Positions 1,933 to 62,701 of a DNA stretch of 64,000 bases are shown in pieces; positions within the stretch are counted from its first letter, which is position 1; the number at the start of each line of letters is the position of its first letter. A model generated the notes under the pieces. That model saw only the letters and a list, made by a program, of their open reading frames with translations. It was not told the DNA's origin and made no database searches. Location of the stretch: NCBI GenBank assembly GCA_963826235.1, contig CAWGWE010000002.1:626399-690398 (forward strand), written 5' to 3'. The stretch comes from Pyrinomonadaceae bacterium (GTDB lineage Bacteria > Acidobacteriota > Blastocatellia > Pyrinomonadales > Pyrinomonadaceae). Made by a program: the position numbers and the translations under genes.

Positions 1933-2168
1933 CACCGCCAAGGCGCCAAGAAACGCAGAGTACGCCAAGACAACTTCGTTAGAGCCGCGATCGGTACAGT
2001 ACGGGGGCGGTAGCTAACCGAATTCTGACTACCAAAAATCAAGTTCCGGAGCTGGTCGAGTAAGCACTCTAAATCCAGGTCTCAATCCCGATTGTGATAT
2101 CTCTTGAATGCGGTCGCTACCGCTCCGTACCGTACCGTTTGCGATCCCTGGCGCGCCTTGGCGGTTGA
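1933..2168. repeat. Nested two-family inverted repeat between convergent genes (families CGCCAAG and GTACAGTACGG/GCGGTAGC)
   Basis: The outer arms are 'caccgccaaggcgccaag' (1933-1970 run) and 'cttggcggtt' (2148-2168). The inner arms are 'gatcggtacagtacgggggcggtagc' (1989-2014) and 'gctaccgctccgtaccgtaccg..gatc' (2110-2146), which match at about 20 of 23 positions. Confidence 0.8.
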
Positions 2169-2186
2169 AGAGTTAAAAAGCACTTC

Positions 2187-4350: not shown

Positions 4351-4392
4351 CTAAGGATCATCTCCGTCTGGATTTTGATTCGATAACATACC

Positions 4393-4441
4393 AAGCGCCG
4401 TTTGCGCACTCGCTAACACGACCAGTGCGCAAACGGCGTTT
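4393..4441 (-). terminator. Strong hairpin between the two small membrane-protein genes (terminator/attenuator-like)
   Basis: A 14-bp perfect stem pairs gccgtttgcgcact (4397-4410) with agtgcgcaaacggc (4424-4437). It is extendable to about 18 bp and has a 13-nt loop. No clear U-tract follows. Confidence 0.35.
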
Positions 4442-4528
4442 GCAATTCGACTTTAACAGAAGTCACTCACACACTCATGCAGAAGGGTCCGGCACCGGCA
4501 GCCTCAAAAAGACATACCCCGAGTGCCA

Positions 4529-4850: not shown

Positions 4851-6893
4851 CTACTTTAGGATCTGGCGCCGATCTCCCACCCTTCTGGTAATTCGTTCAC
4901 GATCCAGAAACTCCAGGAGGGGAATCGCATACTTTCGCGAGACTCCCGCCAGCTCTTTGAAAGTGGCCACGTCGAGCGAGGGGTCGGACGGGTGTTTGAG
5001 GGCAAACTGCTGCAACGTCATGGTTAATTCAGCAAGGGGACGGCTATGAAAGTACAAATCTCCCTGGACGCGTACTAAAGTGCCCTGATCCAGCAGCAGT
5101 TGCAACAGTTTACGTGCATGCGTTTTTTGCGCTGGGGACACGCCCGCCGTTTGCAGCGCTTCGTCCAGAGTTGGCGGCTCCAGGCCCGCAAGCTCGTAGA
5201 GTGAATTCATGCGATCGCGCAGGGCGGCGTCGGGACCGGAAAGTTCAAGCACATGAGCACTCGTCCGAACCAGGTCCTTTTCCGACACTACTGACCCCGC
5301 GTTTTCCAGATCGGACAAGACTGTGCGGAAGACTTCGGCCGAGATATGGGCAAAGTGACGCTCGCGAAGTGTCTCGCGCGCCAAACCTCGTGACAGCGGC
5401 TCTCGCTTGTGATGTTCTTCTACTTCACTCAGCGCAGCCGCTTTGAGACTCGCATACCTGTTTTGATCCAGCAGCAGGCCGCTACAATCGACAATCATTC
5501 CTCGGTGGATCGCTTCATTCAGCGACGGAATCAAACGTCCGTCTTCCCAACCCGTGCGTGCCTTTAAATCTTCCTTCCGTTGTCCCAGGTCACCCGAGAT
5601 TGCAATCAGGACGGACAACTGAGCAGCGGGATCGTCCCCGGCGAGGATTGCCAAACCGTGGCGGACCTCTTCCAGGTCGCGCCCCCGATGTTTGCCGGCA
5701 AGTGGATCGAGAATCTCGCCCCCGGCAATCGTGATTGAAGGAGAGTAAGACCGCAGGATGAAGTGTTCACCCGTGACTGCAGCGATCGGTTTCTCCAAAC
5801 GTAGTTGCACTAGACCCGTGGCTCCCGGCGCAATTTGACCGCTGGATTCCAGCACTTGAATCCGCGCCAAAACCTCCGCGGCATGGATATGAAATCGGAC
5901 TCGTGCTCGCGATCGCAAGGCGCGCGGCGCCCCAGGAAGCACCGAAACTTTCACATCAAGTATCTGTGTACTGCGCAGACTCGAGACCGGAGCCAACAGC
6001 ATCCCGCGCTCGATCGCATTTGTGTCGATGCCTCCGAGGTTCACGGCTGTGCGCTGTCCCGCCCTCGCCTGGGCCACGGCGTTTCCATGGACTTGAACTC
6101 CTCGCGCTCGCACACGACTGTGACCAGGCAGCAGTTCAAGTTCCTCCCCTTCCCTGATCGTACCGGAGACGAGCGTCCCGGTGACGACCGCCCCAAATCC
6201 TTTCATCGCGAAGACGCGATCAACTGGCAGCCGCGGCAGGAGACCTTCGGCGCGCGCCGGCACTTGAAGACTCACCTCTTTTAGCGCTTGCTTTAATTGG
6301 TCGAGGCCGGAACCCGTTTTGGCGCTCACAGGAATAATCGGTGCTGACTCGAGAAATGAGCCGGTTACAAGTTCAGCGATCTCAGACTCTACCAACTCGA
6401 GAAGTTCCTCTTCGACTAGATCGGTCTTAGTAATTACGATCAGTCCCCGCTTGACGCCGAGCAGACGGCAAATGTCGAAATGTTCGCGGGTTTGCGGCAT
6501 CACGCCTTCGTCGGCAGCAATCACAAGGGCAACGACATCAATTCCGTGAGCTCCCGCGAGCATGTTTTTGACGAAGCGTTCGTGGCCCGGTACATCGACG
6601 AACCCAATTCGCACTCCGTCCAGATCCAGATCAGCAAAGCCCAGGTCAATCGTAATTCCGCGCCGCTTTTCTTCGGGTAGACGGTCCGGGTCGCGGCCTG
6701 TCAGCGCGCGCACCAGAGCACTCTTTCCATGATCGATGTGGCCGGCGGTTCCGATGATGACGGAAGCGAAGGTGTCGGGTGACGGGTGTCGGGTGACGGG
6801 CGTCCGGTGTCGGGTTTCAGGGGACAGGTGTCGGGTAACCGATGAACCGTGCTCGGATTCTGGATCTTTTACACCGTCAGCAGGCGATGTCAT
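4851..6893 (-). CDS. selB: Selenocysteine-specific translation elongation factor SelB
   Basis: 680-aa ORF with GTPase motifs '[11 protein letters not shown]', 'DVPGHERF' and 'TKTD'. It has a long winged-helix C-terminus ending '[21 protein letters not shown]'. A ~45-aa N-terminal extension ('[22 protein letters not shown]') is encoded by the GTGACGG repeat run. Its ATG overlaps the stop of the upstream ORF (ATGA at 6890-6893). Confidence 0.9.
6771..6840. repeat. GTGTCGG/GTGACGG heptamer run (inside the selB 5' end)
   Basis: The run reads 'ggtgtcgggtgacgggtgtcgggtgacgggcgtccggtgtcgggtttcaggggacaggtgtcgggtaacc'. An inverted partner lies at 7351-7396. Confidence 0.85.
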
Positions 6894-7265
6894 AGGCCGC
6901 TCAATTCAAAACGTGTTCGTAATGGGTTTCTGAGAGAGTAAAGTTGCCTTCCCAAAGAGTTAATCTCACCTAGCAGTTCTTTCAGCTCTGAAGGTTGAAC
7001 ATACTCAAGTCGGCCTTGCGAATTCCACTTGCGTTTCGATCCGGGCAGGGGATGCCTGAGCGATCGAGATATGGTGCAGATATTCTCGCAGATGATCTCT
7101 GGTATGCCCCTCCGCAACATTAGACGGAACCGAAACAATCGCCCTTTGTAGTTGGCTCATCAATCCGTAGGTTTCATGTTTTGGAAATTTCTGCGTGAGC
7201 CGATAGATCATCTCTACCAACTCCATTGCTTGTTGCCAGACTCTTAATTCGCGAAAGCTTTTCAT
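6890..7265 (-). pseudogene. Four-helix-bundle protein (23S rRNA intervening-sequence protein family), frame-disrupted
   Basis: ORF 7005..7313, trimmed to ATG 7265 (GGGAG RBS), reads 'MKSFRELRVWQQAMELVEMIYRLTQKFPKHETYGLMSQLQRAIVSVPSNVAEGH'. The family C-terminus 'RLEYVQPSELKELLGEINSLGRQLYSLRN' continues in ORF 6890..7138 in another frame. A 1-nt indel lies near GGCC 7012-7015. Confidence 0.65.
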
Positions 7266-7350
7266 GAGGATCTCCCTGGTGGTGAGGTTTGCGGGTTTGC
7301 CACGCAATTCCAATGAAGGTTAGTGGAAATCCCGATGCCAGTCCATGGGA

Positions 7351-7396
7351 CCCGTGACCCGTCACCCGGTGACCTGGCACCCGTCACCCGTCACCG
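7351..7396. repeat. CCGTCAC/CCGACAC heptamer run, inverse of 6771-6840
   Basis: The run reads 'cccgtgacccgtcacccggtgacctggcacccgtcacccgtcaccg'. It lies between the VWA gene stop and the four-helix-bundle gene. Confidence 0.85.
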
Positions 7397-10769: not shown

Positions 10770-10921
10770 GAAGTCTTAGTTCTTCACGACCTCTCGCACA
10801 GGTTCTGTGGCTATCCGCTCTTGCTAAATAACCCAGACTTTTGAACCGTTGCCAAGCCGGAAGATTCGGAGACTAATTCGACTTCAAGTTACCAAGGACA
10901 AAGATCATTGTCCAAAAGGAA

Positions 10922-10950
10922 AGGCAGGCGACCCTCGCAATCGCCTGCCT
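10922..10950 (-). terminator. Orphan terminator-like hairpin in the bshA / nfu divergent spacer
   Basis: A 10-bp stem pairs aggcaggcga with tcgcctgcct around a 9-nt loop. On the minus strand it is followed by TTCCTTTTGG. No annotated minus-strand gene ends here. Confidence 0.3.
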
Positions 10951-11215
10951 CTATCTCAACTTGTCTCACCTGGTAAGGGTAGGGGCAAGTGAGGGACGGA
11001 GTATATGCCCGTCACTAATTTTTTTGCAAGAAATCTTGCATCGTTTTGAGATATTTTTTAATGGCGCGATTCACCGGAAAAAAGGCGCAGTTAACAAGGC
11101 GATTCCCGTGCCTCCTGCGCATAGTGCGACAACTCGCATATAATGGCTTCGAAATTAAGAATCGTAAGAATTTTCGCCTGATTGGCAGGCTTAAGCGAAC
11201 AAATGGAGATCAGAA

Positions 11216-11779: not shown

Positions 11780-11815
11780 AGGAGAAAACAACTTCGGGGG
11801 CTGGCTTTACCAAAC

Positions 11816-11850
11816 CCATTTTCCATTTATCATTTTCAATTTTTCATTGG
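11816..11850. repeat. TTTCCATT/TTTTCATT octamer run (AATGGAAA family), unpaired
   Basis: The run reads 'ccattttccatttatcattttcaatttttcattgg' and lies downstream of the Nfu gene. Confidence 0.8.
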
Positions 11851-11920
11851 ACTCCAAACCTCTTGAGCTCGACTCGATTAGCAGCATCGACTGAATTTCG
11901 CCACACGTGCTCTGCTTGAA

Positions 11921-12157
11921 TTGCAGGAGACGACGTTGCTGGCGGCTTGCGCCGCAGGCGGCCTCTTCAAACGTCCCTGTTACATTTCAGAAATCATCAC
12001 TCAGATGAATCTGATTGGCGTTGGTTCGCTGGCCATCGTCCTGCTCACGAGATTCTGGTTCGCCCGGACAGGATTAAGCGAACCAAATTTTCGGCCACGG
12101 CGTATCTCCAGTGAGCTTGTGTGCCTTTCCTTCCTCGGTGATCAGGAGAATCTGTAA
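11921..12157 (+). pseudogene. Possible remnant of an MlaE-type ABC permease N-terminus
   Basis: The 78-aa ORF contains 'FKRPCYISEIITQMNLIGVGSLAIVLLT', which resembles the conserved N-terminal MlaE motif (R.P...Q...IGV.SL.IV.LT). The similarity then stops. Weak, from memory only. Confidence 0.25.
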
Positions 12158-14079: not shown

Positions 14080-14189
14080 GAACTTAGAACTTTGTACGTT
14101 GTACTTTGATGCTGACCGTGCATGGAATGCCTTCGGTCAGTAAAACACTCCAGGCTCCCAAGGAACTCAAAGTACAAAGCACAAAGATC
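14080..14189. repeat. AGTACAAAG-family imperfect inverted repeat between convergent genes
   Basis: The left arm is 'gaacttagaactttgtacgttgtactttgatgctgaccg' and the right arm is 'cggtcag...ctcaaagtacaaagcacaaagatc'. The inner 7-bp stem pairs ctgaccg with cggtcag. Confidence 0.8.
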
Positions 14190-14197
14190 TATTAGTT

Positions 14198-14944: not shown

Positions 14945-14992
14945 CGTGCTTGAGGTTTAGCTGAACCAGGGTATTTGGTCAAGGAGAGTTGG

Positions 14993-15095
14993 ATTGCCGA
15001 TTGGCGATTGCCGATTTTCGATCTGGCTTTTGCTACGGGCCAATTGCCAATCGCCAATCGGCTATCGTGAATCGGCTATCACCAATCGGCAATCA
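14993..15095. repeat. GCCGATTG/GCCAATTG-family inverted repeat
   Basis: The sequence 'gccgattggcgattg' (14995-15009) is perfectly complementary to 'caatcgccaatcggc' (15048-15062). Further degenerate units flank both arms. Confidence 0.85.
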
Positions 15096-15126
15096 GCATT
15101 CGGTGTTATAGTCCCTCGCCCAAGCG

Positions 15127-17320: not shown

Positions 17321-17366
17321 AATTGCCGATGCCGATTGGCAATTGCCAATTGGAAATCGGCAATCT
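17321..17366. repeat. GCCAATTG-family palindromic run
   Basis: The run 'aattgccgatgccgattggcaattgccaattggaaatcggcaatct' is centred on the palindrome ggcaattgcc. It lies between the RDD gene and the phosphatase gene. Confidence 0.8.
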
Positions 17367-23049: not shown

Positions 23050-24426
23050 GTGGTGGCTCTGATGAAACGCGATCAGCCCGATGAGATCACTGCAAACGAG
23101 GTGCCTGATAGCTCACGTCGTTCGTTCGGTTCAGCCAGGCGTTTCGCAGCTCCGCGCAAATCCAGTCTGCTCGGCCTCTTCCGTATCACCGCTCTCTGGG
23201 AAGCTTTCCTCGTAGCCACGTCCAGTCTCCGCACCAACAAACTCCGCACGGCACTAACACTGATGGGCATAGTGGTCGGCGTTACAGCAGTGATTGCCGT
23301 CGTCACGATCATCAAAGGTCTCGACAAGACCGTCGCGCAAACTTTCTCGTCGCAGGGTTCGACGGTTTTCACGATTTCGAAAAAGCCGGCGATTATTAAA
23401 TCGCGGGAAGAGTTTGTCACCTTCAATAAACGCAAGGACGTTACCGACGAAGACGCCGAGGCAATCGCGCGGCTTTGCTCGGTCTGTTGGCGTGTCGGCA
23501 TCGCGGCCAATGCTGTGGAAACGGTCAAGCGTGCCGATCAAAAAGCCGAAAACGTGCGCATCCGTGGCGTAACTCCGCTCACGATGTTTGAGATCGACGG
23601 TGTCTCGATTGATGCCGGCCGCATCTGGACTGACGGCGAAGGTCAATCCGGACGTGCTGTTGCAGTAGCGGGCCCGGACCTGCTGAAGAACCTGTTTGGC
23701 GATGCGCCTGCGGATCGCGCGGTGGGCCAGGAGATTCGGATTGCCGGGCGGCCATACACAGTGATTGGCGTGCTGGAGCCGCTCGGCTCCATTTTTGGTT
23801 TCTCGCGCGACAACGTTGTCTACATCCCTTACTCGGCTTATCAACAATCGTTTGGCGCGCGTAGCTCGATTGTTGCGTTCATACAAGTGCCCAGCGCCGA
23901 ACAATTGGAAGCCGCCGAAGATCAGGTGCGCACTATTATGCTGAACCGGCGCGGCAAAATGTTCGGCGACGACGGTGATGAGGGATTTTCATTAGAGACC
24001 CAGGATGTGTTTCTCGATCTTTATGGGCAAGCAACTTCCAACATCTACATCGTAACGATTGGGGTTGCGGCCATTTCACTTGTGGTGGGAGGCATCGTGG
24101 TAATGAATATCATGCTCGTCTCCGTCACCGAACGCACCAAGGAAATCGGGATTCGCAAAGCTATTGGGGCACGACGAAAAGATATTCTCGCGCAGTTTCT
24201 AATTGAGGCTGTAACGGTAACGGCAATTGGAGGCGCGCTCGGTGTGATAACTGGTTTTGGTTTGGCTTACATCATCGCTTCACTGATTGGTTTTCCCCTG
24301 TTGGTGAGTGTGGCCTCAGCAGTTTTAGGGGTTGGTGTTTCATCGGTGGTGGGAATTATCAGCGGGTTGTGGCCCGCCTGGCGCGCAGCGAAACTCGATC
24401 CGATTGAAGCTCTGCGAGCGGAGTAA
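23050..24426 (+). CDS. ABC transporter permease, MacB-like (MacB_PCD + FtsX), paralog 1
   Basis: 458-aa ORF with a GTG start (alternative ATG at 23062). It contains 'LRTNKLRTALTLMGIVVGV' and the FtsX core 'MNIMLVSVTERTKEIGIRKAIGA', and ends 'LDPIEALRAE'. Confidence 0.8.
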   Translation: MVALMKRDQPDEITANEVPDSSRRSFGSARRFAAPRKSSLLGLFRITALWEAFLVATSSLRTNKLRTALTLMGIVVGVTAVIAVVTIIKGLDKTVAQTFSSQGSTVFTISKKPAIIKSREEFVTFNKRKDVTDEDAEAIARLCSVCWRVGIAANAVETVKRADQKAENVRIRGVTPLTMFEIDGVSIDAGRIWTDGEGQSGRAVAVAGPDLLKNLFGDAPADRAVGQEIRIAGRPYTVIGVLEPLGSIFGFSRDNVVYIPYSAYQQSFGARSSIVAFIQVPSAEQLEAAEDQVRTIMLNRRGKMFGDDGDEGFSLETQDVFLDLYGQATSNIYIVTIGVAAISLVVGGIVVMNIMLVSVTERTKEIGIRKAIGARRKDILAQFLIEAVTVTAIGGALGVITGFGLAYIIASLIGFPLLVSVASAVLGVGVSSVVGIISGLWPAWRAAKLDPIEALRAE

Positions 24427-24430
24427 CATC

Positions 24431-24526
24431 ATTGGCGATTGCCAATTGCCGATTGCCAATTTTTAAGTGCAATAGATACTAGTCAGCTTCAAAGGTGCGC
24501 CAATTGGCAATTGGCAATTGGCAATT
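24431..24526. repeat. GCCAATTG-family inverted repeat between permease paralogs 1 and 2
   Basis: The left arm is 'attggcgattgccaattgccgattgccaattt' and the right arm is 'gccaattggcaattggcaattggcaatt' (perfect 8-nt period). Confidence 0.85.
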
Positions 24527-24532
24527 AATCTA

Positions 24533-25774
24533 ATGCGTTTAGACGACGTAAAAGAATCTTCACTGATGGCGCTCGACACGCTGCGAGCGAATAAGCTGCG
24601 CTCGTCGCTGACGATCCTCGGTGTCAGTGTCGGCGTCGTCACCATCATCTTCATGGTTTCGATCATACAGGGGCTGAATCGCGCTTTTGCCGATCAGATT
24701 GAATCGCTCGGCTCGAACACAATTTTTGTTTCTAAGTTTGAACCCAGTTTCGGACGACCACCCAATCCCGAAGAAGTTCATCGCAAAGACCTGACCATGG
24801 ATGATGCGGAAGCTTTGCGTCGCGAGGCCCCCTCCATCGCTGGGGTCTCGCCGATCCATCGGATGATTGCAGCAACGGCTCGTTATCAGGACAGACAGAC
24901 CGATACGCCGATTCTTTTAGGAGTGACGCCCTATTACGAGTTTGTGCACAGCCAGTACGTCGCGAGCGGACGATTCATCGGAGACATCGAGATGCAGGAC
25001 CGCGCCAACGTCTGCGTCCTCGGCGTCGATGTGATGCGCGCGCTTTTCCCTTACGAGAATGCGGTCGACAAGGAGATTAGAATTAACGGCAATCCTTATC
25101 GAGTGATCGGTGTGATGGAACCGCTCGGCAATTTCTTTGGCCAGTCGCGCGACAATACCATCTTCATGCCAATTTCCACGTTCGATAAATACTATCCCGA
25201 TCAACCATTCCCTCAGGTGGTGTTTTTTATTATCGTTCGCCCGCACTCGCGCGCCCACGTGAAGTCAGCGATGGATGAGATAAGCGACATCCTGCGCCGC
25301 CGCCGCCGCGTTCCGCAAAACGCGCCGAACAATTTTGGTGTCTCATCACAGGATTCCTTGTTGGACATTTACAATCAACTGACCGGCGCGACTGCACTGG
25401 TTCTGACTGCAATCTCCTTTGTGGCGTTGATGATTGGAGGTATCGGCGTCATGAACATCATGCTGGTCTCTGTTACCGAGCGCACTAAAGAAATTGGCAT
25501 TCGCAAAGCTGTGGGTGCTACAAAATTCAACATCCTTTCGCAGTTTCTGATTGAAGCGGTCGTGTTGACGGCGATTGGCGGACTTGCAGGTTTGATCGTT
25601 GGGGAGATTGCCAGCCTGCTGATGAACCGGTATTCGCCGCTCCCTGCTTATGTTCCGCTCTGGGCCATCGCCATGGGAATCGGAATTTCAGCTGCGGTGG
25701 GGATTGTGTTTGGGCTCTGGCCCGCATGGAAAGCAGCACGCCTGGATCCGATTGAGGCGTTGCGGTGGGAATAG
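24533..25774 (+). CDS. ABC transporter permease, MacB-like, paralog 2
   Basis: ORF 24518..25774 trimmed to ATG 24533, because the TTG at 24518 lies inside the GCCAATTG repeat. It contains 'LRANKLRSSLTILGVSVGV' and 'MNIMLVSVTERTKEIGIRKAVGA', and ends 'LDPIEALRWE'. Confidence 0.8.
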   Translation: MRLDDVKESSLMALDTLRANKLRSSLTILGVSVGVVTIIFMVSIIQGLNRAFADQIESLGSNTIFVSKFEPSFGRPPNPEEVHRKDLTMDDAEALRREAPSIAGVSPIHRMIAATARYQDRQTDTPILLGVTPYYEFVHSQYVASGRFIGDIEMQDRANVCVLGVDVMRALFPYENAVDKEIRINGNPYRVIGVMEPLGNFFGQSRDNTIFMPISTFDKYYPDQPFPQVVFFIIVRPHSRAHVKSAMDEISDILRRRRRVPQNAPNNFGVSSQDSLLDIYNQLTGATALVLTAISFVALMIGGIGVMNIMLVSVTERTKEIGIRKAVGATKFNILSQFLIEAVVLTAIGGLAGLIVGEIASLLMNRYSPLPAYVPLWAIAMGIGISAAVGIVFGLWPAWKAARLDPIEALRWE

Positions 25775-25937: not shown

Positions 25938-25988
25938 AGGGCCCCTATAGAGAAACCCTTAACGTTTCTGACCCGTATTAACTAAACC

Positions 25989-39587: not shown

Positions 39588-40410
39588 ATGCAGGCTCTTG
39601 TTTCCATCGTCGTTCCGGCCTACAACGAAGGCACCCGGCTGCGAGAGTCGCTCCCCAGGATTCTCGCTTATCTGAACCAGGAGTTCGCCAGTTCCGAATT
39701 AATCGTAGTTGATGACGGATCGACAGATAACACAGCGGAAGTTGCCCGCGAGTCTTTGGCAAATTCCGGCGACGTGCGACACCGGAGTCCTCAGTTACAA
39801 ACAGAATCTGGGCAAAGGCCGGGCAGTGCGGCTGGGCTTGCTCGCCTCACGCGGTGACGTGGCGCTGTTTACCGACGCCGATCTTTCGACGCCAATCACC
39901 GAGACGCCGAAACTGATAACACCTATCGTCAACGGCGAGTGCGATCTGACATTTGGTTCGCGCGCCCTCGATCGCGGACTGATTGGCGTCCATCAACCCT
40001 GGCGCCGCGAGCAGGGAGGAAGAGTATTCAATCTCGCCGTCCGGCTGGCGACGCGACTGCCTTTCTGGGACACTCAGTGCGGCTTCAAAGCGTTTCGCAT
40101 GCAGGTTTGCCGGCCCCTGATTGAAGGCGCAACCATCGATCGCTTTGGATTTGATGTCGAGCTCATTTACCTGGCGTACCGCGCTGGGCTGCGACTACGC
40201 GAAGTGCCGGTGCGTTGGGACCATTACGAAGGTAGCAAGGTGAATGTGTTCAGCGACAGCTTTAAGATGTTGAGCGAAGTTGGATTGATTCGACAGCAGG
40301 CGCGCCGCGGAGTTTATGATCAGGCGATCCGCGCTGCGCGGACTGAACCAGTAGGCGTAGTCAGTAGTCAGGAAACAGGCGTCAGCAGTCAGTTGCTTAG
40401 TTGTCAGTAG
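39588..40410 (+). pseudogene. Family 2 glycosyltransferase (dolichyl/polyprenyl-phosphate sugar transferase-like), frame-disrupted
   Basis: ORF 39588..39857 contains 'VSIVVPAYNEG' and 'LIVVDDGSTDNT'. ORF 39709..40410 contains 'NLGKGRAVRLG', 'FTDADLSTP' and 'QCGFKAF'. The frame changes at about 39776-39782. The last ~20 codons ('VVSSQETGVSSQLLSCQ') are encoded by the GTCAGTA repeat. Confidence 0.7.
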
Positions 40411-40536
40411 TGTTAGTGGCGGTGGTCGTCCGCATGGCGTACAAAAGAGCCGGAACACACAAAGAACCGAATCCTTCGACTGACGACTGACGACTGACCA
40501 CTGACTATTGACACTAACCACTGACCACTGACTATT
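40351..40536. repeat. GTCAGTA-family inverted repeat (about 60-nt arms)
   Basis: The left arm is 'gtaggcgtagtcagtagtcaggaaacaggcgtcagcagtcagttgcttagttgtcagtagtgttagtgg'. The right arm is 'cgactgacgactgacgactgaccactgactattgacactaaccactgaccactgactatt'. Confidence 0.85.
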
Positions 40537-40564
40537 AAAGATAAATAAATGGAAAAGGCTAAGA

Positions 40565-41857: not shown

Positions 41858-43483
<1,626 letters not shown>

Positions 43484-43570
43484 TTACGAGCCCCGAGCAG
43501 GGCAAAAATTGGGTTGGATAAAAGCCAGTCAAGATAACATGAGCAACGAAGATGCGGCAAATATCGCAAT

Positions 43571-43809
43571 TAGTCAGTAGTCAGTGGTCAGTAGTCGGTG
43601 GTCAATGGGAATCAAAGTTGGATTAACGGCGAACGGTCGAAGTGAGACCGCACACTCGTTTGCAGATCTTTGTAATGCTTCTTCCCTTGGCTTCCCTGGC
43701 GCTTCTTGGCGGCTTGGCGGTTTCCTCCTGCCTTCAAATGACAAATGGAAAATGTTCTTATTGAAGACGTGAGACCTGAGACCTGAGACCTGAGACTCGA
43801 AACTTGATC
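43571..43809. repeat. Mosaic of four unpaired repeat-family runs
   Basis: The four runs are the GTCAGTA run (43571-43608), the CTTGGCG run (43684-43726), the AATGACAA/AATGGAAA run (43734-43758) and the GAGACCT run (43769-43809). Confidence 0.8.
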
Positions 43810-44733: not shown

Positions 44734-44740
44734 ACCGAAG

Positions 44741-44821
44741 CCTCAAGTCCCAGAATCTCAAGTCTCAAGTTTGCATCGTGATTAACTGGGAACTTGGAAC
44801 CTGAGACTTGGGACTTGAGAC
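44741..44821. repeat. GAGACTT-family inverted repeat between the two selenoprotein genes
   Basis: The arm 'cctcaagtcccagaatctcaagtctcaagttt' faces 'gggaacttggaacctgagacttgggacttgagac'. Confidence 0.85.
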
Positions 44822-44828
44822 TAAGGTC

Positions 44829-49849: not shown

Positions 49850-49976
49850 TTATTTTCCATTTCTCATTTCTAATCTTTCATTTCTTTTTCAGTCGGCAGC
49901 CAGTCACTCGGTTGTCAGCAGTCACAAACCTGGTGTTAACTACCCAGGTTCCACTGACCACTGACGACTGACTACG
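49850..49976. repeat. TTTCCATT run plus GTCAGTA-family inverted repeat
   Basis: The run 'ttattttccatttctcatttctaatctttcatttctttttc' comes first. Then 'agtcggcagccagtcactcggttgtcagcagtcac' faces 'ccactgaccactgacgactgactacg'. The inner stem pairs aacctgg with ccaggtt. Confidence 0.8.
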
Positions 49977-51548: not shown

Positions 51549-52051
51549 TCAAACTTCAAGGTGAGATCAACGCCGAGCGACACGATTTGCGGCTGCGGCG
51601 CGAAGTCGAGCTGGTTTCCGCCGAAGTTGATGGGCGCTCCTACTCTCTCGAGGTTCACAATCCCGCGTCTGGAGTGTTTCTACTGCGCAGCGGCACCAAT
51701 GTTTTCCATTGCCGCGTTGAGGCTGGAGGGAAACTGGAAGTTCTCAACGTGAGTTTGCGTGGCAGAGACTACGCGATTCAACTTATTGATCCGAAGCGGC
51801 TACGCGGTTCGCAAAGTTCTGGCGCACACGATCACGGGGCAGTGCAAATTGTCGCCTCGATGCCCGGCAAGGTTGTGCGCCTGTTGGTGGAGGTAGGCTC
51901 GCAGGTAGAAGCCGGTGCTGGGATCGTCGTCGTTGAAGCAATGAAGATGCAAAATGAAATGAAGTCACCGAAGGCTGGTGTTGTCACTTCCCTGAGTGCT
52001 ACCGCCGGCGCGACTGTTAATGCGGGAGATGTTTTGGCGGAGATTGAATAA
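51545..52051 (+). CDS. Biotin carboxyl carrier / biotinyl-domain protein
   Basis: 168 aa with C-terminal 'VVVEAMKMQNEM' (the biotinyl-Lys motif). Its start overlaps the accC stop (ATGA). Confidence 0.8.
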   Translation: MIKLQGEINAERHDLRLRREVELVSAEVDGRSYSLEVHNPASGVFLLRSGTNVFHCRVEAGGKLEVLNVSLRGRDYAIQLIDPKRLRGSQSSGAHDHGAVQIVASMPGKVVRLLVEVGSQVEAGAGIVVVEAMKMQNEMKSPKAGVVTSLSATAGATVNAGDVLAEIE

Positions 52052-52190
52052 GGTATGAGGAGAGAGGGATGAAGGATGAAAGTACAGATACAACGTCGAA
52101 TCTTTCTTTTTCACTGAATAGTGATTCGACTCTTCGCTCCGGGAAAGCCGATTTTGTCCGCTCATCCCTCATCCCTCAGCCCTCCTCCCT
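52052..52190. repeat. GGGATGA-family inverted repeat
   Basis: The arm 'ggtatgaggagagagggatgaaggatgaaag' faces 'gctcatccctcatccctcagccctcctccc'. The inner stem pairs tcgaatc with gattcga. Confidence 0.85.
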
Positions 52191-52911
52191 TCAAAGGCTC
52201 TCCCCCTCTCGAATCCTGCTCTGGGACATTGACGGCACCTTGATCCGCTCGGCGCGTACCGGCGCATTCAAGGACTACACCATTCCCATGCTGGAAAAAG
52301 TCTTTGGAACCGCGGGAAGACTTGGCGAGATGCAAGTCTCAGGAATGACAGATCTGCAAATCGTCGCCGAGGCTCTGCGCGATGAGGGTTTCACTCACGA
52401 AGACGTCCACCAGCGCATCGATCTTGTGCGCGAGCGTTACATGGAGGAGATGAAGCGCGCCACCGGAAACGGCGAAGAGTTTTTTGAGCTCTTACCCGGC
52501 GTCCGGGAAACACTTGAAGCGATCGCGGCGGAACCTCGCTACCGTTCCGCCTTGCTTACCGGCAACATCGAGCCCGCAGCCTATCTGAAAATGGAGTTGA
52601 TGGGTCTGAGTGAATTCTTCGACCTGCCTGGCGCCTTTGGCGACGAGTCGCACAATCGAAACGATCTACCGGAACTTGCCGCCGCACGAATCAGGGAACA
52701 TCTCGCAGTGGACTTCGAACCGCATCAGTTTATTGTCATCGGTGATACGCCCAACGACATCGCCTGCGCCAAACACTTCGGCGCCCGCTCGCTTGCTGTG
52801 GGCACCGGCCGACTCTACAGCACTAAAGATCTGCTGGCCTGCGATCCCGATGCGTTCATTCCGAATCTTTCTGATTCAATTCAGGTATTAAAGGTCTTGC
52901 ATGAATTGTGA
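52069..52911 (+). CDS. HAD superfamily hydrolase
   Basis: 280-aa ORF with HAD motifs 'LLWDIDGTLI', 'LLTGN' and 'GDTPNDI'. The first ~45 codons are encoded by the GGGATGA repeat pair and the spacer between its two arms, so the true start is uncertain. No canonical start codon lies close to the DxDGT motif. Confidence 0.7.
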   Translation: MKDESTDTTSNLSFSLNSDSTLRSGKADFVRSSLIPQPSSLQRLSPSRILLWDIDGTLIRSARTGAFKDYTIPMLEKVFGTAGRLGEMQVSGMTDLQIVAEALRDEGFTHEDVHQRIDLVRERYMEEMKRATGNGEEFFELLPGVRETLEAIAAEPRYRSALLTGNIEPAAYLKMELMGLSEFFDLPGAFGDESHNRNDLPELAAARIREHLAVDFEPHQFIVIGDTPNDIACAKHFGARSLAVGTGRLYSTKDLLACDPDAFIPNLSDSIQVLKVLHEL

Positions 52912-55243: not shown

Positions 55244-55273
55244 CGGGGCCGGATTGTAACATCATCGGAATTG

Positions 55274-55608
55274 TCGATAGCCAATTGCCGATTGCCGATT
55301 GGGACTTGTGGGGCTGAATGATGTCCAATGGTCAAAGCCCCTGGCTTCAGCGCGAACAAACTGCGCTTTTTTGACGTTGGACATTGAACTTTGGACGGCT
55401 TCCGTTCCTCGGTTATCTTTCGTTAAGAAACCAACTTCGATGCGCGAGCACATTCGCCATTACAGTACAGGGGCGTTAGCGACCGCTGCCGCTTGCCGAT
55501 TGAGGATTGCCAATTAGTCTCTAGCCAGGTTCCAATCGGAAATCGGCAATTGGAAATTGGCAATGTTAGCGGTCGCTACCGATGCCGTGCCGTACCGAGT
55601 GCCGTTGC
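55274..55608. repeat. Composite of three repeat families in one divergent spacer
   Basis: The GCCAATTG run lies at 55274-55302 and the GGACATT pair at 55316-55397. A two-family composite hairpin spans 55457-55608. Its left half is 'cattacagtacaggggcgttagcgaccgctgccgcttgccgattgaggattgccaatt'. Its right half is 'ccaatcggaaatcggcaattggaaattggcaatgttagcggtcgctaccg..gtaccg'. Confidence 0.8.
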
Positions 55609-55778: not shown

Positions 55779-56288
55779 ATGAAAACAATTGTTGGGCGTC
55801 ATGTCCTTATCGTTATCTTCGTGGCCGGGCTGTTATCGATTCCAACTACGAGCGCCGAAGCCCAAACCCCGACGGCCACGCCGGCACCGACAATCTCTGA
55901 TTTGAGTTGGTTAGCCGGCGATTGGCAGACCGCGGCAGGTGGACGATCACAAACTGATGAACATTGGACTCACCCATCGGGCGCTTCAATGCTCGGCTTG
56001 AGTCGCACGGTCGCAGGGGGACGCACCTACGAGTTTGAATACTTAAGAATTGAACAAAGACAGGACGGGATCTACTACGTCGCTCATCCCAAGGCTCGCT
56101 GCCCGGGAACTGATTTTAAACTGACGAGCGTGACGACCACCGAGGCGGTTTTCGAAAACCCGGCCCATGATTTTCCCAAGCGCATCACTTACCATAAGAC
56201 TGCGGCAGGCTCACTCGTCGCCAGCGTCGACGGCGGCCCCGGCAGCAAGGGCTTTACGTTCACATATCTGCCCATGAAAAAAGGCTGA
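55779..56288 (+). CDS. Hypothetical secreted protein (lipocalin-like DUF, 'FENPAHDFPKRITY' type)
   Basis: ORF 55656..56288 trimmed to ATG 55779 (GAGG RBS). It has a signal peptide ending 'TSAEAQ', and contains 'LSWLAGDWQ' and 'FENPAHDFPKRITY'. Confidence 0.55.
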   Translation: MKTIVGRHVLIVIFVAGLLSIPTTSAEAQTPTATPAPTISDLSWLAGDWQTAAGGRSQTDEHWTHPSGASMLGLSRTVAGGRTYEFEYLRIEQRQDGIYYVAHPKARCPGTDFKLTSVTTTEAVFENPAHDFPKRITYHKTAAGSLVASVDGGPGSKGFTFTYLPMKKG

Positions 56289-56359
56289 ACTTTGAGCTCT
56301 GTACTTTGAGCTTTGGGTTTGTTAGGGGAACGAAGAACAGAGTACTAAGTTCGAAGATC
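56287..56359. repeat. AGTACAAAG-family run pair between convergent genes
   Basis: The run 'gaactttgagctctgtactttgagctttgggtttgtt' faces 'gaacgaagaacagagtactaagttcgaagatc'. Complementarity is only partial. Confidence 0.6.
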
Positions 56360-57177: not shown

Positions 57178-57239
57178 CTCGGTACAGTACGGGAGCGGTC
57201 GCTCGATCCGGTCCGCCACGATCCGGTCCGCCACGATCC
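57178..57239. repeat. GTACAGTACGG/GCGGTCGC unit followed by 15-nt direct repeat
   Basis: The unit 'ctcggtacagtacgggagcggtcgctc' is followed by 'gatccggtccgccac' twice plus a partial third copy (57205-57239). Confidence 0.75.
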
Positions 57240-57980: not shown

Positions 57981-58013
57981 GGTGGAAGGATACCCTAAAG
58001 ATGTGATTGAGAA

Positions 58014-58272
<259 letters not shown>

Positions 58273-58283
<11 letters not shown>

Positions 58284-60159
58284 TATTGACTCTTTAATCG
58301 TTAAGTTTCACACTCCTCCCGAGGTTGGGCCTTCTCATCACCGCTGCTGTATGTATGAGAAGTTCAAAGAATTAGACGGCACACATCCCTGGCGGGAAGT
58401 AAGCCCTGATGGTTTTATCGACTATCGTGCTCGCTACCGGCCGAAGGGCCGTGTTCTTTACTTCAACTTCCCGCTCGCCAGGGAACTGGAACTGATCCCG
58501 CTCGATCATCCTCGCCTCATCACGAAAGACCTCGAGCAAGCCATCCTCGAAACTTTCTCGCTGCAAATAATCAACGAATACGATCTAAAGCTGGGCAAGA
58601 AGTATCCTGCGAAAACGGTGAAAGCGCGCCCTTACATGGCGACCCGTTATCTGCAAACCCAGCATCGCAATAAACAAGGTAAGACTTCCGGAGACGGCAG
58701 GAGCATTTGGAATGGCTGCTTGCAGACCTCTAACCTGATTTTCGATATCTCGAGTCGCGGAACGGGCGCGACGATGCTTAGTCCGGGCGCCCAGCAATCT
58801 GATGGCGCTGTTAAGACTGGCGACGAAAGCTATGGCTATTCTTCAGGCCTTGCGGAGCTTGATGAAATGGTGGGCAGCGCGGTCATGTCAGAAATTTTTT
58901 ACCGGCAAGGGATTCCCACCGAGCGTTGTCTGGCCGTGATTGGCTTTACCGATGGCAGCGCAATCGGAGTCAGAAGCGCGCCGAATCTCATCCGGCCAGC
59001 GCACATCTTTCGATACCTCAAACAGGGCCGTCATGCAGAACTCAAGGCGTCGGTCGATTACTTCATTAAGCGAGAAGTTGAGAACCATTTTTGGAAGGTG
59101 CCGCTCGCGGGCGCGGCAAAGTATCAGCGAGCTCTGAATTACCTGGCACGCTCATATGGGAAGATGGCAGCTTTGCTTGAAGAAGAATACATCTTTAACT
59201 GGTTGGCGTGGGACGGAGACAACATGCTGGCAAGCGGTGCGATCCTCGATTACGGATCAATCAGGCAATTTGCCGCCAAGCACGATAAGTATCGCTTCAA
59301 GGATGTGGATCGCTATTCGGCTTCGCTTGCGGAGCAACGCTACTGGGCCCGTCTGATCGTTCAGACGTTTGCGCAGGCGATGGATTTCATTTGTTCTGGT
59401 AAGAAACGCAATCTGCGTGAGTTCAAAACTGCGGAAGCTCTGCTGGCGTTCGATTCTGCTTTCGCAGATGAGAGTGACTACCGCATCCTGTGGCGGATCG
59501 GGTGCAGTCCTCAGCAAATTAATGAGCTGCTAAAAAGCGCACGCGAAGAAGTCAAACAGTTTCACAAATCCCTGACTTATTTTGAGGATCTTAAGGTCGC
59601 GCGCGGCATCGAAAAGCTGCCTGACGGTTTTACCCACAAGCCAGTGTTTCTCATTCGCAACCTATTAAGACAAATGCCCGCATACTACCTGGCACAGAGT
59701 CTGAACCGTGAAGATGATGAGACCGCTTACATGCCGGACGATATCTTCCTGCGTGTCATGGCTGGTTCTTATGTCGGACAAAGAGACTTGAAGTTAACCC
59801 CATCTCGTCGGGCCCACGTTAGGAATTTTCAGCAATGCTACTTGCGGTTGATTGGCTCCCTGGGCCAGCCATTCGAGGAAATCTTAAGAACACTTCAGGA
59901 TCGTTCAGCCGTCATCAACCATCGACATCGCCTAACGGGGGACGCGCTCATTTTCATCATCGAGGAAGTGATTGCTATCAAAGGCAGGATTAAGGTTAAC
60001 GGTCTGCAGGAGGCGCTCGACGCCTTCATCGATTCCCAGGTGTTGGTTCCGGGCAGTTGGCAGCCGGTAGCGCCGGAGCAGTTAAAGCACCGCACACTAA
60101 AATCGCGCTTGCTACTGACAATTCAGGAGAACCTCGAAACGTTCAAAGAATCGATCTGA
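58273..60159 (+). CDS. Divergent SelO/YdiU-like (UPF0061) pseudokinase-fold protein
   Basis: 628 aa. Against E. coli YdiU from memory: 'SGDGRSIWNG...FDISSRGTGAT' aligns with 'LGDGRGILLG...WHLKGAGLTP'. 'AVMSEIFYRQGIPTERCLAVIG' aligns with '[20 protein letters not shown]'. 'NWLAWDGDNMLASGAILDYGSIRQF' aligns with '[23 protein letters not shown]'. Confidence 0.6.
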
Positions 60160-60488: not shown

Positions 60489-62669
60489 ATGAAAAGATTT
60501 TCGCTCGCGATCACGCTCGCACTATTGTTGAGCATTACCTTTTGTGCCCAGCCCGCCGTTTTGGCGCAAGTCGCCAATCCCACTAACGGAAGTTATCAGG
60601 GAGGGGGAAAGTACGAGAAACAGATTCGGCTCTTCGAAGAGTTTGCCCGGAAACAAATGAGTCTCGACAAAACGGTCGGGCTGACCATTGGGTTCATGAA
60701 GGATGACTTTGTGTGGGTGAAAGGTTATGGCTACGCCGACCTCGAGAATAAGTCGCCGGCCAAGCCTGAATCGGCTTACCGCCTCGCTTCAGTGACAAAG
60801 CCTATGACTGCATTTGCTGTCCTGCAGCTAGTCGAAAAAGGAAAGATCGATCTCGATGCCGAAGTTCAAACCTACGTGCCTTACTTTCCGAAGAAGCAGT
60901 GGCCCGTCACCGTCCGTCAGGTGCTGGGACATCTCGGAGGCATCAGCCACTACAAAAATCCTACCAACGAGTTGCACATCAAAGAGCGGCGCTCGACGCG
61001 TGAATCGATTGCGATCTTTGAAAATTTTGATCTCGTAGCGGAACCGGGCACGCGCTACAGCTATTCGAGCTACGGCTACAACCTGCTGGGCGCGATCATC
61101 GAAGCCGCGAGCGGCATGTCGTATGGCGAATACATGCGCCAAAACATTTGGCAGCCACTCGGCATGATGAACACGCGCATGGATGATCCTCTCGACGTAA
61201 TTCCGAATCGCGTGCGCGGGTATCAACTTCTAAACGGGCAAGTGAAGAATTCGGAGTTCATCGATATCAGTAGTCGCTTCGCCGCAGGCGGCACGCGTTC
61301 CACCATTCCTGATCTGCTTAAGTTTGCGAAGGGAGTCATGGAAGGGAAATTACTAAAGCCTGACATGATGAACGTAATGGCGACCTCCATGAGCACGCGC
61401 GCTGGTCGTCTGACGAACTATGGTTTGGGATGGGAGACGACGCCCTACAACGGACGCTACATGCTGGTGCACTCCGGCGGGCAACAAGAGACGCGCACGT
61501 TGCTCTATATCCTTCCGGCCCGGAAAATGGCCCTCGCAGTTGGTGTCAATTTTGAAGGTTCAAATCCCGGTGTTTACCTTGATCGACTCTTTCAACTCGT
61601 GAGCGGCGCGCCGCTTGTATTAAACGTTTACTCCCCTGACAAAGCGAAAGCTGCCGCTGCGGAGGCGATCAAAGCAACTTTTGATTTCGGCCTGTCTGAT
61701 TTTGAGCGTACGCAAAAATCATTGCCTGCGGGTGATAAAGAACTGGTCGAGGCGTTTGCCGCTTTCAACAGTTTGGTCAATCCTGAAACGCTCAAAGCGC
61801 CTGATACCTTAACGAAGATACGTCAGGGTGCACATCCAGCTGCGAAACAGGCTTTCACAAAAATCGGCGCCTTCATGGCCCAGCAGCTGTGGGATAAGAA
61901 AGGCGCATCCGGTCTCGAACAGTACGCCGCACAGGGTGGCCTCGCATTTTTCCAGGACTACATCACGCTTTCCAAGTCTGGCTCTGCGATACCGAAAGAG
62001 CTCCAGTTTAATGAGCCGTTTGCGGCGCTTGTCACGGAAATGGCCCGCGACTGGAACAAGTCAAACACGGATTATGTGAGGCAGTTTTGGCTGACGCCTG
62101 ACGCTGACATCGAAGCGGTCGCTAAAACTTTGCGGCAGAGTTTCGCTGGGGCCTCTGTTTACCCCAACCTGGTTGATGATTTTTTTAATGTGACGCGGCA
62201 GGCTGTGTTGAGTAAAGATAGCGCCCGGGCCCTGAAGACAAGTCAACTGGCAGTTGAGCTATATCCTGAATCGTCTGGAGCGAATTTCATCGAAGGCATT
62301 TCCTGGTTAGTGAACAAGGACTCAGCCCGCGGAGCTGCTGCACTCAAGAAGGCGGCGACGCTCAACCCAACGCCGGGCGGACCAGCAAGCGCTGGCGGTT
62401 TGAACAACATCGCCTATCAGCTCGCCGGAGTGGGAATGGTAGACGAGGCGATGGCAATTCTGCAGACCGCGATCGAGATGTATCCGCAGGAAGCAAATCT
62501 CTACGACAGTCTGGGCGAGTTTCAACTGAAGAAGGGTGATAAGGCGAAGGCGCTCGCTTCTTATCAAAAGGCGCTCGCGACTAACCCTGAGTTCGGCAAT
62601 GCGGCGGCAGCAAAAGAGATCGTGAAGAAGCTAACTGAGGAACTTGCTGCGAATCCAAGTACACCTTAA
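60489..62669 (+). CDS. Serine hydrolase (class C beta-lactamase/PBP-like) with C-terminal helical and TPR region
   Basis: ORF 60477..62669 trimmed to ATG 60489 (GGAGG RBS). It has a signal peptide and the active-site motif 'ASVTKPMTA' (SxxK). The C-terminal ~330 aa are helical with TPR-like repeats ('MYPQEANLYDSLGEFQLKKGDKAKALASYQKALATNP'). Confidence 0.75.
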   Translation: MKRFSLAITLALLLSITFCAQPAVLAQVANPTNGSYQGGGKYEKQIRLFEEFARKQMSLDKTVGLTIGFMKDDFVWVKGYGYADLENKSPAKPESAYRLASVTKPMTAFAVLQLVEKGKIDLDAEVQTYVPYFPKKQWPVTVRQVLGHLGGISHYKNPTNELHIKERRSTRESIAIFENFDLVAEPGTRYSYSSYGYNLLGAIIEAASGMSYGEYMRQNIWQPLGMMNTRMDDPLDVIPNRVRGYQLLNGQVKNSEFIDISSRFAAGGTRSTIPDLLKFAKGVMEGKLLKPDMMNVMATSMSTRAGRLTNYGLGWETTPYNGRYMLVHSGGQQETRTLLYILPARKMALAVGVNFEGSNPGVYLDRLFQLVSGAPLVLNVYSPDKAKAAAAEAIKATFDFGLSDFERTQKSLPAGDKELVEAFAAFNSLVNPETLKAPDTLTKIRQGAHPAAKQAFTKIGAFMAQQLWDKKGASGLEQYAAQGGLAFFQDYITLSKSGSAIPKELQFNEPFAALVTEMARDWNKSNTDYVRQFWLTPDADIEAVAKTLRQSFAGASVYPNLVDDFFNVTRQAVLSKDSARALKTSQLAVELYPESSGANFIEGISWLVNKDSARGAAALKKAATLNPTPGGPASAGGLNNIAYQLAGVGMVDEAMAILQTAIEMYPQEANLYDSLGEFQLKKGDKAKALASYQKALATNPEFGNAAAAKEIVKKLTEELAANPSTP

Positions 62670-62701
62670 CTTCCAATGTCCAATGTCCGAATGTCCAATG
62701 C
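62670..62701. repeat. CCAATGTC octamer run (GGACATT family), unpaired
   Basis: The run 'cttccaatgtccaatgtccgaatgtccaatgc' lies immediately after the serine-hydrolase stop codon. Confidence 0.8.

Follow-up and report, generated by a model that had tools for sequence, protein, structure and literature searches.

What are the runs of short tandem units that occupy so many spacers in a stretch of DNA from a Pyrinomonadaceae bacterium (Acidobacteriota; GenBank assembly GCA_963826235.1, contig CAWGWE010000002.1, positions 626,399 to 690,398)? The stretch of 64,000 nucleotides (nt), called the window below, has a G+C content of 54%, and its genes include selB, accC and those for an acidobacterial VWA-domain protein and BshA. 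A preliminary description of the window had reported at least ten families of 7- to 8-nt tandem units, mostly paired as inverted repeats, as a pattern that no ordinary annotation explains. The reading slightly favoured here is that the arrays are lineage-specific, largely dispensable palindromic repeat elements of the short tandemly repeated repetitive (STRR) class, which would form stems of double-stranded RNA like those of intervening sequences (IVSs) when transcribed. The element class itself is already known. New are the phylum and the organisation of many families into nested hairpins.

The closest relatives, identified in a scan with one genome per species, are metagenome-assembled genomes (MAGs) of Pyrinomonadaceae/Blastocatellia with AccC identities of 72-79%. 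For a 638-aa protein of the window, orthologues were found in steps of decreasing identity, with 90% at the top, every one from Pyrinomonadaceae. The organism is accordingly an acidobacterium of subdivision 4. One relative, L081 (GCA_041750995.1), is collinear with the window over 20 kb at 84-88% nucleotide identity.

The period of the arrays is seven. In a lag analysis, segments of 21 nt with at least 15 self-matches were scored as runs. Lag 7 gave 36 runs and lag 14 gave 24, compared with 0-4 at lags 3-6 and 8-13 and none in block-shuffled controls. Tandem Repeats Finder detected dozens of period-7 arrays in the window, often better scored at period 14. A slightly lower threshold delimited 39 arrays with a total of 1,777 nt, 21% of the 8.5 kb of non-coding DNA. 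All 39 lie in spacers or in artefactually extended ends of open reading frames (ORFs); none is truly intragenic. Arrays occupy 20 of the 37 spacers of at least 50 nt, and three further spacers contain only elements without a 7-nt period (A or B) or an I hairpin, in agreement with the earlier figure of about 23. The expected confinement to non-coding DNA is exclusive for the arrays; single heptamer words are just 2.5-10 times more common outside genes. In 38 of the 41 previously listed intervals, at least two copies of the respective unit were found with at most one mismatch per copy, and Tandem Repeats Finder independently placed period-7/14 arrays there. One copy each is present at 2148-2168, 28817-28834 and 31301-31316, which are short partner arms. 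The families recur as described, and eight of them (C-J) are heptamer families. A and B are dispersed elements of 39 nt and 25 nt with 92% identical copies, not tandem runs of 7-8 nt. Assembly artefacts are an unlikely source. Related genomes carry such arrays, and where relatives have been assembled independently, the array regions agree at 100% identity, which argues that the arrays are neither artefacts nor hypermutable.

Most arrays form hairpins. Adjacent arrays with matching unit consensus, counted in the window and in relatives, were inverted in 18 cases and direct in one. An inverted-repeat search found arm pairs of 23-39 nt with 73-96% complementarity. Imperfect inverted pairing is thus the prevailing form as proposed, although not the only one: spacer 43466-43809 has four unpaired arrays (H, A, D, G), and single elements without partner are located at 11816-11850, 57178-57204 and 62670-62701. 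Folding was compared with dinucleotide shuffles for each strand separately. Ten array-bearing spacers had z-scores of -3 to -7 on both strands, and 31034-31316 reached -15. Better folding than shuffles was therefore confirmed for most array-bearing spacers and not for 43466-43809. The families nest in one another, with the order A-B-loop-B'-A' at 1933-2168 and D-A-E-loop-E'-D' at 58011-58284; at 31023-31316, D arms surround a pair of Acido-Lenti-1 motifs. The loops between arms of the same family are mutually unrelated, and this separates the arrays from a family of repetitive extragenic palindromes (REPs) or MITEs (miniature inverted-repeat transposable elements) with a single consensus, as had been stated. 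Co-evolution of arms was measured by tests of own against foreign arms; the local alignment of F arms between window and L081 lets the repeat registers slide. The 5' arm of the C-type cassettes described below fits its own 3' arm better than those of other cassettes (23.5 vs 20.3; permutation p = 0.0003). Family F showed the same (p = 0.04) and family E did not (p = 0.7). A general purine-first or G-first polarity of hairpins without ORF was not supported (9 vs 5).

The comparison with relatives revealed how arrays change. The alignment with L081 is broken exactly at the array-bearing spacers; the spacer with the E hairpin at 14080-14191 cannot be aligned with its orthologue. Family F is kept at two orthologous sites with flanks of about 90% identity, and the arrays there differ in unit order and number. 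The F hairpin at 14992-15103 is distinguished from its orthologue by a clean indel of 28 nt (4 x 7), and Tandem Repeats Finder detected higher-order units of period 14 and 28. Slippage lengthens and shortens the arrays by 7, 14 or 28 nt at a time. Between species of 85% identity, an entire hairpin can give way to another at an orthologous site; the spacer between the VWA-domain gene and selB contains C arrays in the window and a J-type hairpin in the two closest relatives. Newer elements are located inside the loops of older ones, which yields nested palindromes. The density of arrays differs about tenfold among related genomes, with 5.6 per 10 kb in the window and 5-6 in some relatives, in contrast to 0-0.5 in L004, L009 and L065. 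The atpD-atpC spacer of L065 has only 8 nt. Upstream of accC, arrays are present in the window and in five of ten relatives, each of a different family. Positional conservation at this site was rejected, as an occupancy of 6/11 is no higher than the background of about 50%.

Arrays are also similar over long distances. A D 32-mer is identical in all 32 positions at 31024 and 58014, 27 kb apart, and has a 94% identical copy at 11817. Further copies at distant loci were found for an A 39-mer (92%), a B 25-mer (92%) and an H 27-mer (89%). Identical imperfect arrays at distant loci show that slippage alone is insufficient and that sequence is copied between spacers. Since the loops are unrelated within a family, whole elements are not copied in the fashion of MITEs. 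MITEs as whole-element mobile copies were rejected: just the arms are common to loci, the centres are unique and duplications are not evident.

A cluster of four tandem MacB_PCD/FtsX permease paralogues (23050-28690) has about 70% nucleotide identity in conserved blocks. The three spacers between the genes and the one after the last gene each contain a different hairpin family (F; G and E; E; A), so each of these spacers was refilled on its own after the genes had been duplicated.

Heptamer repeats in intergenic DNA were first noted in 1990 and are used for the fingerprinting of cyanobacteria. To our knowledge, they have no accepted origin or function. The units of the cyanobacterial STRR1-3 resemble the window types GTCAGTA/GTCAGTG, ACAAATG and GGGATGA. 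Heptanucleotide STRRs were described in Calothrix, and arrays near recF and recO of Nostoc alter reporter expression. Heptanucleotide repeats are the commonest long simple-sequence repeat (SSR) in many bacteria (Mrazek 2007). The runs in the window match this described class, including the inverted pairs of Xanthomonas. The preliminary description had named such a match as refuting, and its view that no ordinary annotation covers the runs is not supported. Shared features with the STRRs of Calothrix and Nostoc and with long SSRs are 7-nt units in tandem, head to tail, several unrelated unit families scattered over many intergenic sites of one genome, a strictly intergenic location and many dispersed arrays. 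The original restriction of STRRs to (heterocystous) cyanobacteria does not apply to the window, whose genes and nearest relatives belong to Acidobacteriota/Pyrinomonadaceae. Acidobacteriota are not mentioned in the literature on heptamer repeats cited here; the window extends the class to that phylum. Compared with STRRs, the arrays of the window are short and imperfect, have two alternating unit variants and occur mainly as inverted pairs and nested palindromes. In Nostoc, merely "a few" G-rich arrays are paired (PMC4692102).

A second acidobacterial class provided a side observation: a Terriglobia MAG (L015, 21 kb) contains 16 period-7 arrays of the type CGACCAT/CGACAAT/AACCGAN. Heptamer arrays are thus not confined to Blastocatellia.

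Other described repeat systems share parts of this organisation. Xanthomonas genomes have about 185 GGGAATC arrays, and 70-75 pairs per genome are convergent/inverted (Rehm et al. 2015, PMC4692102). Like in the window, these arrays are intergenic, conserved in position and variable in length between species. They are a single G-rich family studied as G-quadruplex former, whereas the window has about ten families that are mostly not G-rich. Arrays of TAACTGA are intergenic direct heptamers as well; their patchy distribution in Beggiatoaceae, Cyanobacteria and some Bacteroidetes suggests horizontal spread (MacGregor 2015, PMC4679880). They have one unit, are inverted in 1 of 170 cases and are located directly upstream of starts; the window has many families, mostly inverted, in all types of spacers. 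REPs, bacterial interspersed mosaic elements (BIMEs) and REPINs (REP doublets forming hairpins) resemble the window arrays as short extragenic palindromes in many spacers, including intra-operon ones, in doublet or hairpin form, dispensable and lineage-specific, and they have a known effect on mRNA stability. In REPs, each family has a single consensus with a tetranucleotide head that is conserved and without internal period, whereas the loci of the window share only a unit vocabulary. Instead of one palindrome consensus of 20-40 nt, the arms are periodic arrays with variable unit numbers and unrelated loops. No REP-associated tyrosine transposase (RAYT; IS200/IS605-like Y1 transposase) was detected in the scan of about 40 of the 58 window ORFs.

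The Acido-Lenti-1 motif (RF01687) was identified in the nested palindrome at 31023-31316. Its two copies scored above the Rfam gathering threshold of 37 bits and cover the inner arms only, not the heptamer arrays. The pair (31079-31281) lies inside the outer D arms, is inverted with a distance of 101 nt and has 51-nt arms of 92% complementarity. It is a REPIN-like doublet rather than a free-standing small RNA gene. No copy of the motif was found in 140 kb from seven relatives, and a search of seven related loci against Rfam gave no match.

Family C connects the arrays with a gene. Its two arrays, 555 nt apart, enclose ORF 7005-7313, which encodes a PF05635 "23S rRNA intervening-sequence protein" (IVP), an Avd-like four-helix bundle. 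The gene is broken. Three-frame translation over 7005-7313 and 6890-7004 placed the conserved C-terminal helix (LEYVQPSELKELLGEINSLGRQLYSLRN) out of frame with the N-terminal 86 residues; full-length homologues have 118 aa and 72-92% identity. Locus 6758-7395 is the only one in the window with a PF05635 ORF between terminal inverted repeats and with the potential for a long stem. The 23S rRNA IVSs of Leptospira and Coxiella likewise carry a PF05635 (S23p) ORF in the loop of a long stem of terminal repeats. The cassette of the window differs by its location between the VWA-domain gene and selB and not in helix 9, 25 or 45 of 23S rRNA, and by arms of 6-10 heptamer units; its stem is a putative substrate of RNase III. 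Most window hairpins differ from IVSs in carrying no ORF. At the VWA-selB site of relatives with VWA identities of 57-64%, a full-length homologue with 72-79% identity is flanked by C-type arms. Such arms flank orthologous and paralogous PF05635 genes in L084, L086, L088 and L089, and one armed homologue is located in a different operon. A recent insertion of the cassette in the window was rejected, considering its synteny at 57-64% VWA identity and its absence from precisely the two closest relatives.

The association is general. A metagenome scan yielded 80 loci homologous to the PF05635 gene, and the 71 loci with at least 100 nt on both sides were analysed. A period-7 array lies at most 160 nt from the gene in 69 of them and on both sides in 51; the flanks are inversely complementary in 57. 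Near the gene, there are 4.45 arrays per kb, compared with 0.27 elsewhere, a 16-fold difference. Arms consist of 5-10 units of the form G3-5N2-4, and the upstream arm is G-rich in all 58 cassettes (58/58). The loci represent at least 22 distinct genomic contexts. Random insertion of the gene into any pre-existing hairpin was rejected because the arms are always of this form and G-rich first, yet A/T-rich families are present in the same genomes. Plasmids provided additional cases. PF05635 homologues are encoded on 40 of 72,556 plasmids, mostly of Nostocales. Arrays flank 13 of the 16 plasmid loci examined; eight have G-rich-first inverted pairs, one of these from Azospirillum. On cyanobacterial plasmids (L172, L175, L178, L171), armed PF05635 genes are inserted within cas6|cas4, within cas10|cmr3 and between the two genes for ribonucleotide-reductase subunits. 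Their behaviour is that of "intervening" cassettes within operons.

Published data fit to this association. In Coxiella, two or three tandem heptamers precede the S23p ORF of the 23S IVS, inside the terminal stem, with a copy number that varies by strain (PMC4990558). RNase III cleaves at the first heptamer, and the S23p protein is apparently not made in vivo (PMC4990558). The homologue with a solved structure is Xanthomonas XCC0516 (2GSC, five chains). A GGGAATC array covers its start codon according to a published supplementary table, and the array abuts this PF05635 gene, a link not drawn in the paper on the arrays (PMC4692102). The literature search found no published general link between PF05635 genes and heptamer arrays.

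According to the favoured reading, 4-15 imperfect 7-nt units would make up the first array of an element, followed by a short loop of unique sequence and an array complementary to the first. Arrays would expand by slippage, spread as copies between spacers or be replaced there, and become nested where a new one arises in the loop of an older one. After transcription, stems of 20-60 bp may provide double-stranded RNA of the kind cleavable by RNase III, and a use as intercistronic processing or stability sites would be a side effect or a secondarily adopted function. Processing by RNase III is inferred because the family C arms are conserved, co-evolving arms of a PF05635 cassette, in an architecture like that of the Coxiella 23S IVS. 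Several observations weigh against this reading. Of the ten families, a PF05635 cassette is associated with just one (C, and perhaps with I as well), and for the A/T-rich families D, E, F and H, RNase III processing would be an extrapolation. Several arrays are unpaired. The arms of E fit their own partner no better than they fit other E hairpins, so some complementarity may stem merely from a shared consensus. A transposase, a RAYT or another gene for mobilisation was not detected in the 64-kb window, of whose 58 ORFs about 40 were scanned, and no target-site duplications were seen in comparisons of filled with differently filled orthologous sites; together with the unrelated loops, this leaves classical whole-element transposition unsupported. 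The recurrence upstream of accC and of F at two orthologous sites could mean function rather than neutrality.

The strongest competitor, which we consider unlikely, assumes selected regulatory RNA hairpins that are kept for the flanking genes as factor-dependent or U-tract-less terminators, 3' stabilisers or intercistronic insulators. Heptamer arrays would then be handy "slippery" stems that tolerate shifts of register. Strong folding on both strands fits, as does the start of many arrays a few nt past a stop codon (14080, 25776, 27235, 56286, 62670). The location between cistrons of unequal stoichiometry (atpD/atpC), the arm co-evolution in family F and in C cassettes, and the hairpins of differing families in the accC upstream spacer of 6/11 genomes point in the same direction, although the last value is in the range of the background occupancy. 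Intrinsic terminators have a G+C-rich stem and a T/U tract at the 3' end. The array hairpins lack T tails; a classical terminator follows atpC. Terminator-like sites are not enriched, with 24 observed versus 24.8 expected and 17 versus 24.5. Arrays occur in five of nine divergent spacers, where no transcript ends, and inside operons, in atpD-atpC and between two opp ATPase genes. Termination was therefore rejected as main role. Selection at the RNA level on the sense strand was rejected as well: a wobble bias of the stems was not supported (4 sense-compatible versus 11 antisense-compatible mismatches), and the minimum free energies (MFEs) of sense and antisense strands had no trend. The same spacers are free of hairpins in relatives, with the short atpD-atpC spacer of L065 and the nearly array-free L004, L009 and L065 as examples. 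All this makes the earlier suggestion of terminators or insulators a weak one. The local templated mechanism that had been suggested beside it is a possibility.

A 7-nt period could also mirror a protein. Arrays may be candidate platforms to which a protein binds, each monomer covering about 7 nt; the protein would be either of the cold-shock/S1 type or an Avd-like pentameric PF05635 protein. Period and families would then follow from its specificity for DNA or RNA, with the hairpin form as a secondary trait. All families keep strictly to a period of 7 irrespective of their sequence. CspB binds with one protein per heptamer, and binding of S1, Csp or CsrA was proposed for TAACTGA arrays (PMC4679880). 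PF05635 genes are almost always within heptamer arrays, the arm type partly tracks the protein clade, and PF05635 is homologous to Avd, a nucleic-acid-associated factor of diversity-generating retroelements; the PF05635 structure 2GSC has five chains. Ten unrelated unit sequences have to be reconciled with one (truncated) PF05635 gene in 64 kb, arm units vary within protein clades (cluster 16), and the Coxiella S23p protein is apparently not produced; a binding platform is thus rated as rather improbable. Ordinary microsatellites, arising by independent slippage in permissive non-coding DNA with a polymerase-set preference for 7 nt (Mrazek) and without dispersal or selection, would explain the indels in multiples of 7 and the period-14/28 structure, and in many bacteria no class of long SSRs is commoner than heptamers. 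As sole explanation, they are already contradicted by identical imperfect 32-mers 27 kb apart, the 18:1 excess of inverted over direct pairs, a unit vocabulary common to different genera, G-rich-first cassettes conserved round one gene family across phyla and the identity of independent assemblies, which excludes hypermutability. Very little probability is assigned to them. The same applies to scars of break healing, in which a templated activity like that of a reverse transcriptase or primase would extend the two 3' ends at a double-strand break with family repeats. Fill-in and joining would create inverted arms, one unit always first, round captured DNA, and repeated breakage at the tip would cause nesting. 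This would account for the fixed arm polarity (G-rich arm 5' on both strands in 58/58 cassettes; H and E consistent across genomes), arms that vary independently in length, unique loops and nested architecture, and Avd is an accessory factor of a reverse transcriptase. The proposal is derived from architecture alone, and no such enzyme is known or was found. Common descent explains the polarity equally well, and the polarity of a D-like family is reversed in L002.

The reading as STRR-class palindromic elements could be extended, though we doubt that the extension is correct. Heptamer arrays across bacteria might all be arms of one IVS-like cassette class built round an Avd-like PF05635 gene. 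The form with ORF would be founding and autonomous, its protein would act on its own G-rich arms by binding, processing or copying, and hairpins without ORF would be non-autonomous derivatives or by-products. If true, the STRR puzzle, now 35 years old, would acquire a gene and a mechanism and become directly accessible to experiments. Independent of this extension, a heptamer class fills a fifth of the non-coding DNA of the window in Acidobacteriota, and its natural form in this lineage is the nested hairpin, not the simple array. One sub-class is tightly coupled to a PF05635 gene, as seen in 69 of the 71 loci and also in four other phyla, which links it to an element with experimentally shown RNase III processing. 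The question what STRRs are for becomes testable.

Table 1. Array elements and associated features in the window. A dot indicates that no strand was assigned; paired z-scores of folding are given for the two strands.
Feature	Position	Strand	Remarks
Nested palindrome, convergent spacer	1933-2168	.	A 1933-1970, B 1989-2014, centre of ~95 nt, B' 2110-2146, A' 2148-2168; z -4.2/-6.2; MFE structure pairs A:A' and B:B'; 92% identical copies of A and B elsewhere
C array, GGTGTCG/GGTGACG, ~9 units	6758-6836	.	C-rich 3' arm of IVP cassette (minus-strand reading); inside sole in-frame 5' extension of selB; Tandem Repeats Finder
C array pairing	6758-6836 and 7350-7395		Inverted; 73-83% complementary across 555 nt
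PF05635 gene	7005-7313	-	In loop between C arrays; C-terminus cut by frameshift; Pfam E 9e-27
C array	7350-7395	.	G-rich 5' arm of IVP cassette on minus strand
D array, unpaired	11816-11850	.	94% identical to 32-mer at 31024 and 58014
E hairpin, convergent spacer	14080-14191	.	Arms 14085-14109/14167-14191, 88% complementary; z -5.4/-5.7
F hairpin, divergent spacer	14992-15103	.	Arms 87-88% complementary; z -4.1/-6.9
F short hairpin	17321-17366	.	Lag-7 runs and Tandem Repeats Finder; orthologous F array in L081
F hairpin between co-directional MacB/FtsX permease paralogues	24431-24526	.	Arms 96% complementary; z -3.9/-3.6
Unpaired G array, then E hairpin	25776-25937	.	G 25776-25813; E 25820-25937
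E hairpin	27235-27416	.	Long right arm of ~15 units; Tandem Repeats Finder period 7/28
A-element hairpin, convergent spacer	28708-28834	.	Arms 28709-28744/28796-28831, 75% complementary; z -3.9/-5.0
Giant nested palindrome, flanked by two genes for opp-type ABC ATPases	31023-31316	.	Outer D arms 31023-31056 and 31301-31316; z -15
Acido-Lenti-1 (RF01687), inverted copies in 31023-31316	31083-31128; 31232-31277	-; +	Rfam 46.8 and 45.8 bits
J hairpin, divergent spacer	35908-35990	.	z -4.3/-3.7
H hairpin	40349-40546	.	Left arm read as final ~20 codons of ORF 39709-40410
I hairpin (GGGATGA) between atpD and atpC, intra-operon	41858-41945	.	z -5.1/-7.7; atpC by Pfam
Four unpaired arrays/elements	43571-43809	.	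H 43571-43608, A' 43684-43726, D 43734-43758, G 43765-43809; spacer z +1.5/+0.3
G hairpin	44738-44822	.	Tandem Repeats Finder, lag-7 runs
Unpaired D array and H hairpin just upstream of accC	49850-49976	.	D 49850-49890; H 49891-49976; z -5.0/-5.1
I hairpin downstream of accC-accB pair	52050-52191	.	Arms 76% complementary; true start of next gene ~52204 (orthologue lengths, Pfam)
F, J and B arms, composite in 704-nt divergent spacer	55270-55608	.	Arm pairs, lag-7 runs
E hairpin filling 69-nt convergent spacer	56286-56359	.	z -4.9
Single B element	57178-57204	.	92% identical to 1991-2015
Nested palindrome, divergent spacer	58011-58284	.	Order D, A (without partner), E, loop, E', D'; complementarity of D arms 83% over 201 nt; D 32-mer 100% identical to 31024-31055; A 39-mer 92% identical to 1934-1972
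J array, unpaired	62670-62701	.	Straight after stop codon

Arrays with ATG or without stop codons mislead ORF callers; in the window, the genes for selB, a GT2 protein and a HAD hydrolase are mis-extended. An array with an ATG in each unit has possible starts in every one of the three frames, which probably confuses start calling by the longest ORF. Three ORFs (58273, 31033(-) and 58037(-)) seem to begin with "MEN…" because the D unit contains ATGGAAAAT. ORF 52069 begins inside the I array; orthologues point to a start near 52204. For selB (minus strand), the C array region 6771-6893 has no in-frame start downstream of the array, and the sole start is the ATG at 6893. With this start, the array encodes part of an N-terminal extension of 41 aa with a periodicity of 7 aa; orthologues begin at a conserved TSVI motif. 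Either a non-canonical start may be used or the array may be translated. The GT2-type glycosyltransferase ORF 39709-40410 lacks the N-terminal ~60 residues of its orthologues, and the H array codes for its last ~20 codons, at the place of the orthologues' stop. The sequence suggests a possible pseudogene or frameshift.

Further spacers had features of their own. The divergent spacer between the BshA and NifU-like genes (10770-11215, 446 nt) is free of arrays and about 85-90% conserved in L081 and L083. It contains a perfect stem, GGCAGGCGACCCTCGCAATCGCCTGCC, without Rfam match and may be a conserved regulatory region or a small RNA. The 377-nt spacer 11780-12156 carries a D array. The two closest relatives have an extra gene for 565-631 aa there (L081 8027-9922), between the NifU-like and the 638-aa genes; the window becomes homologous again some 100 nt ahead of the next start codon. 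A gene seems to have been lost from the window. The divergent spacer 4351-4522 has a strong predicted structure (z -6.5, plus strand) without heptamer arrays, and relatives annotate a 72-aa gene nearby on the opposite strand. Right after the B element, a perfect 15-nt tandem repeat (CGATCCGGTCCGCCA, 2.4 copies) at 57204-57239 is unrelated to the heptamer families.

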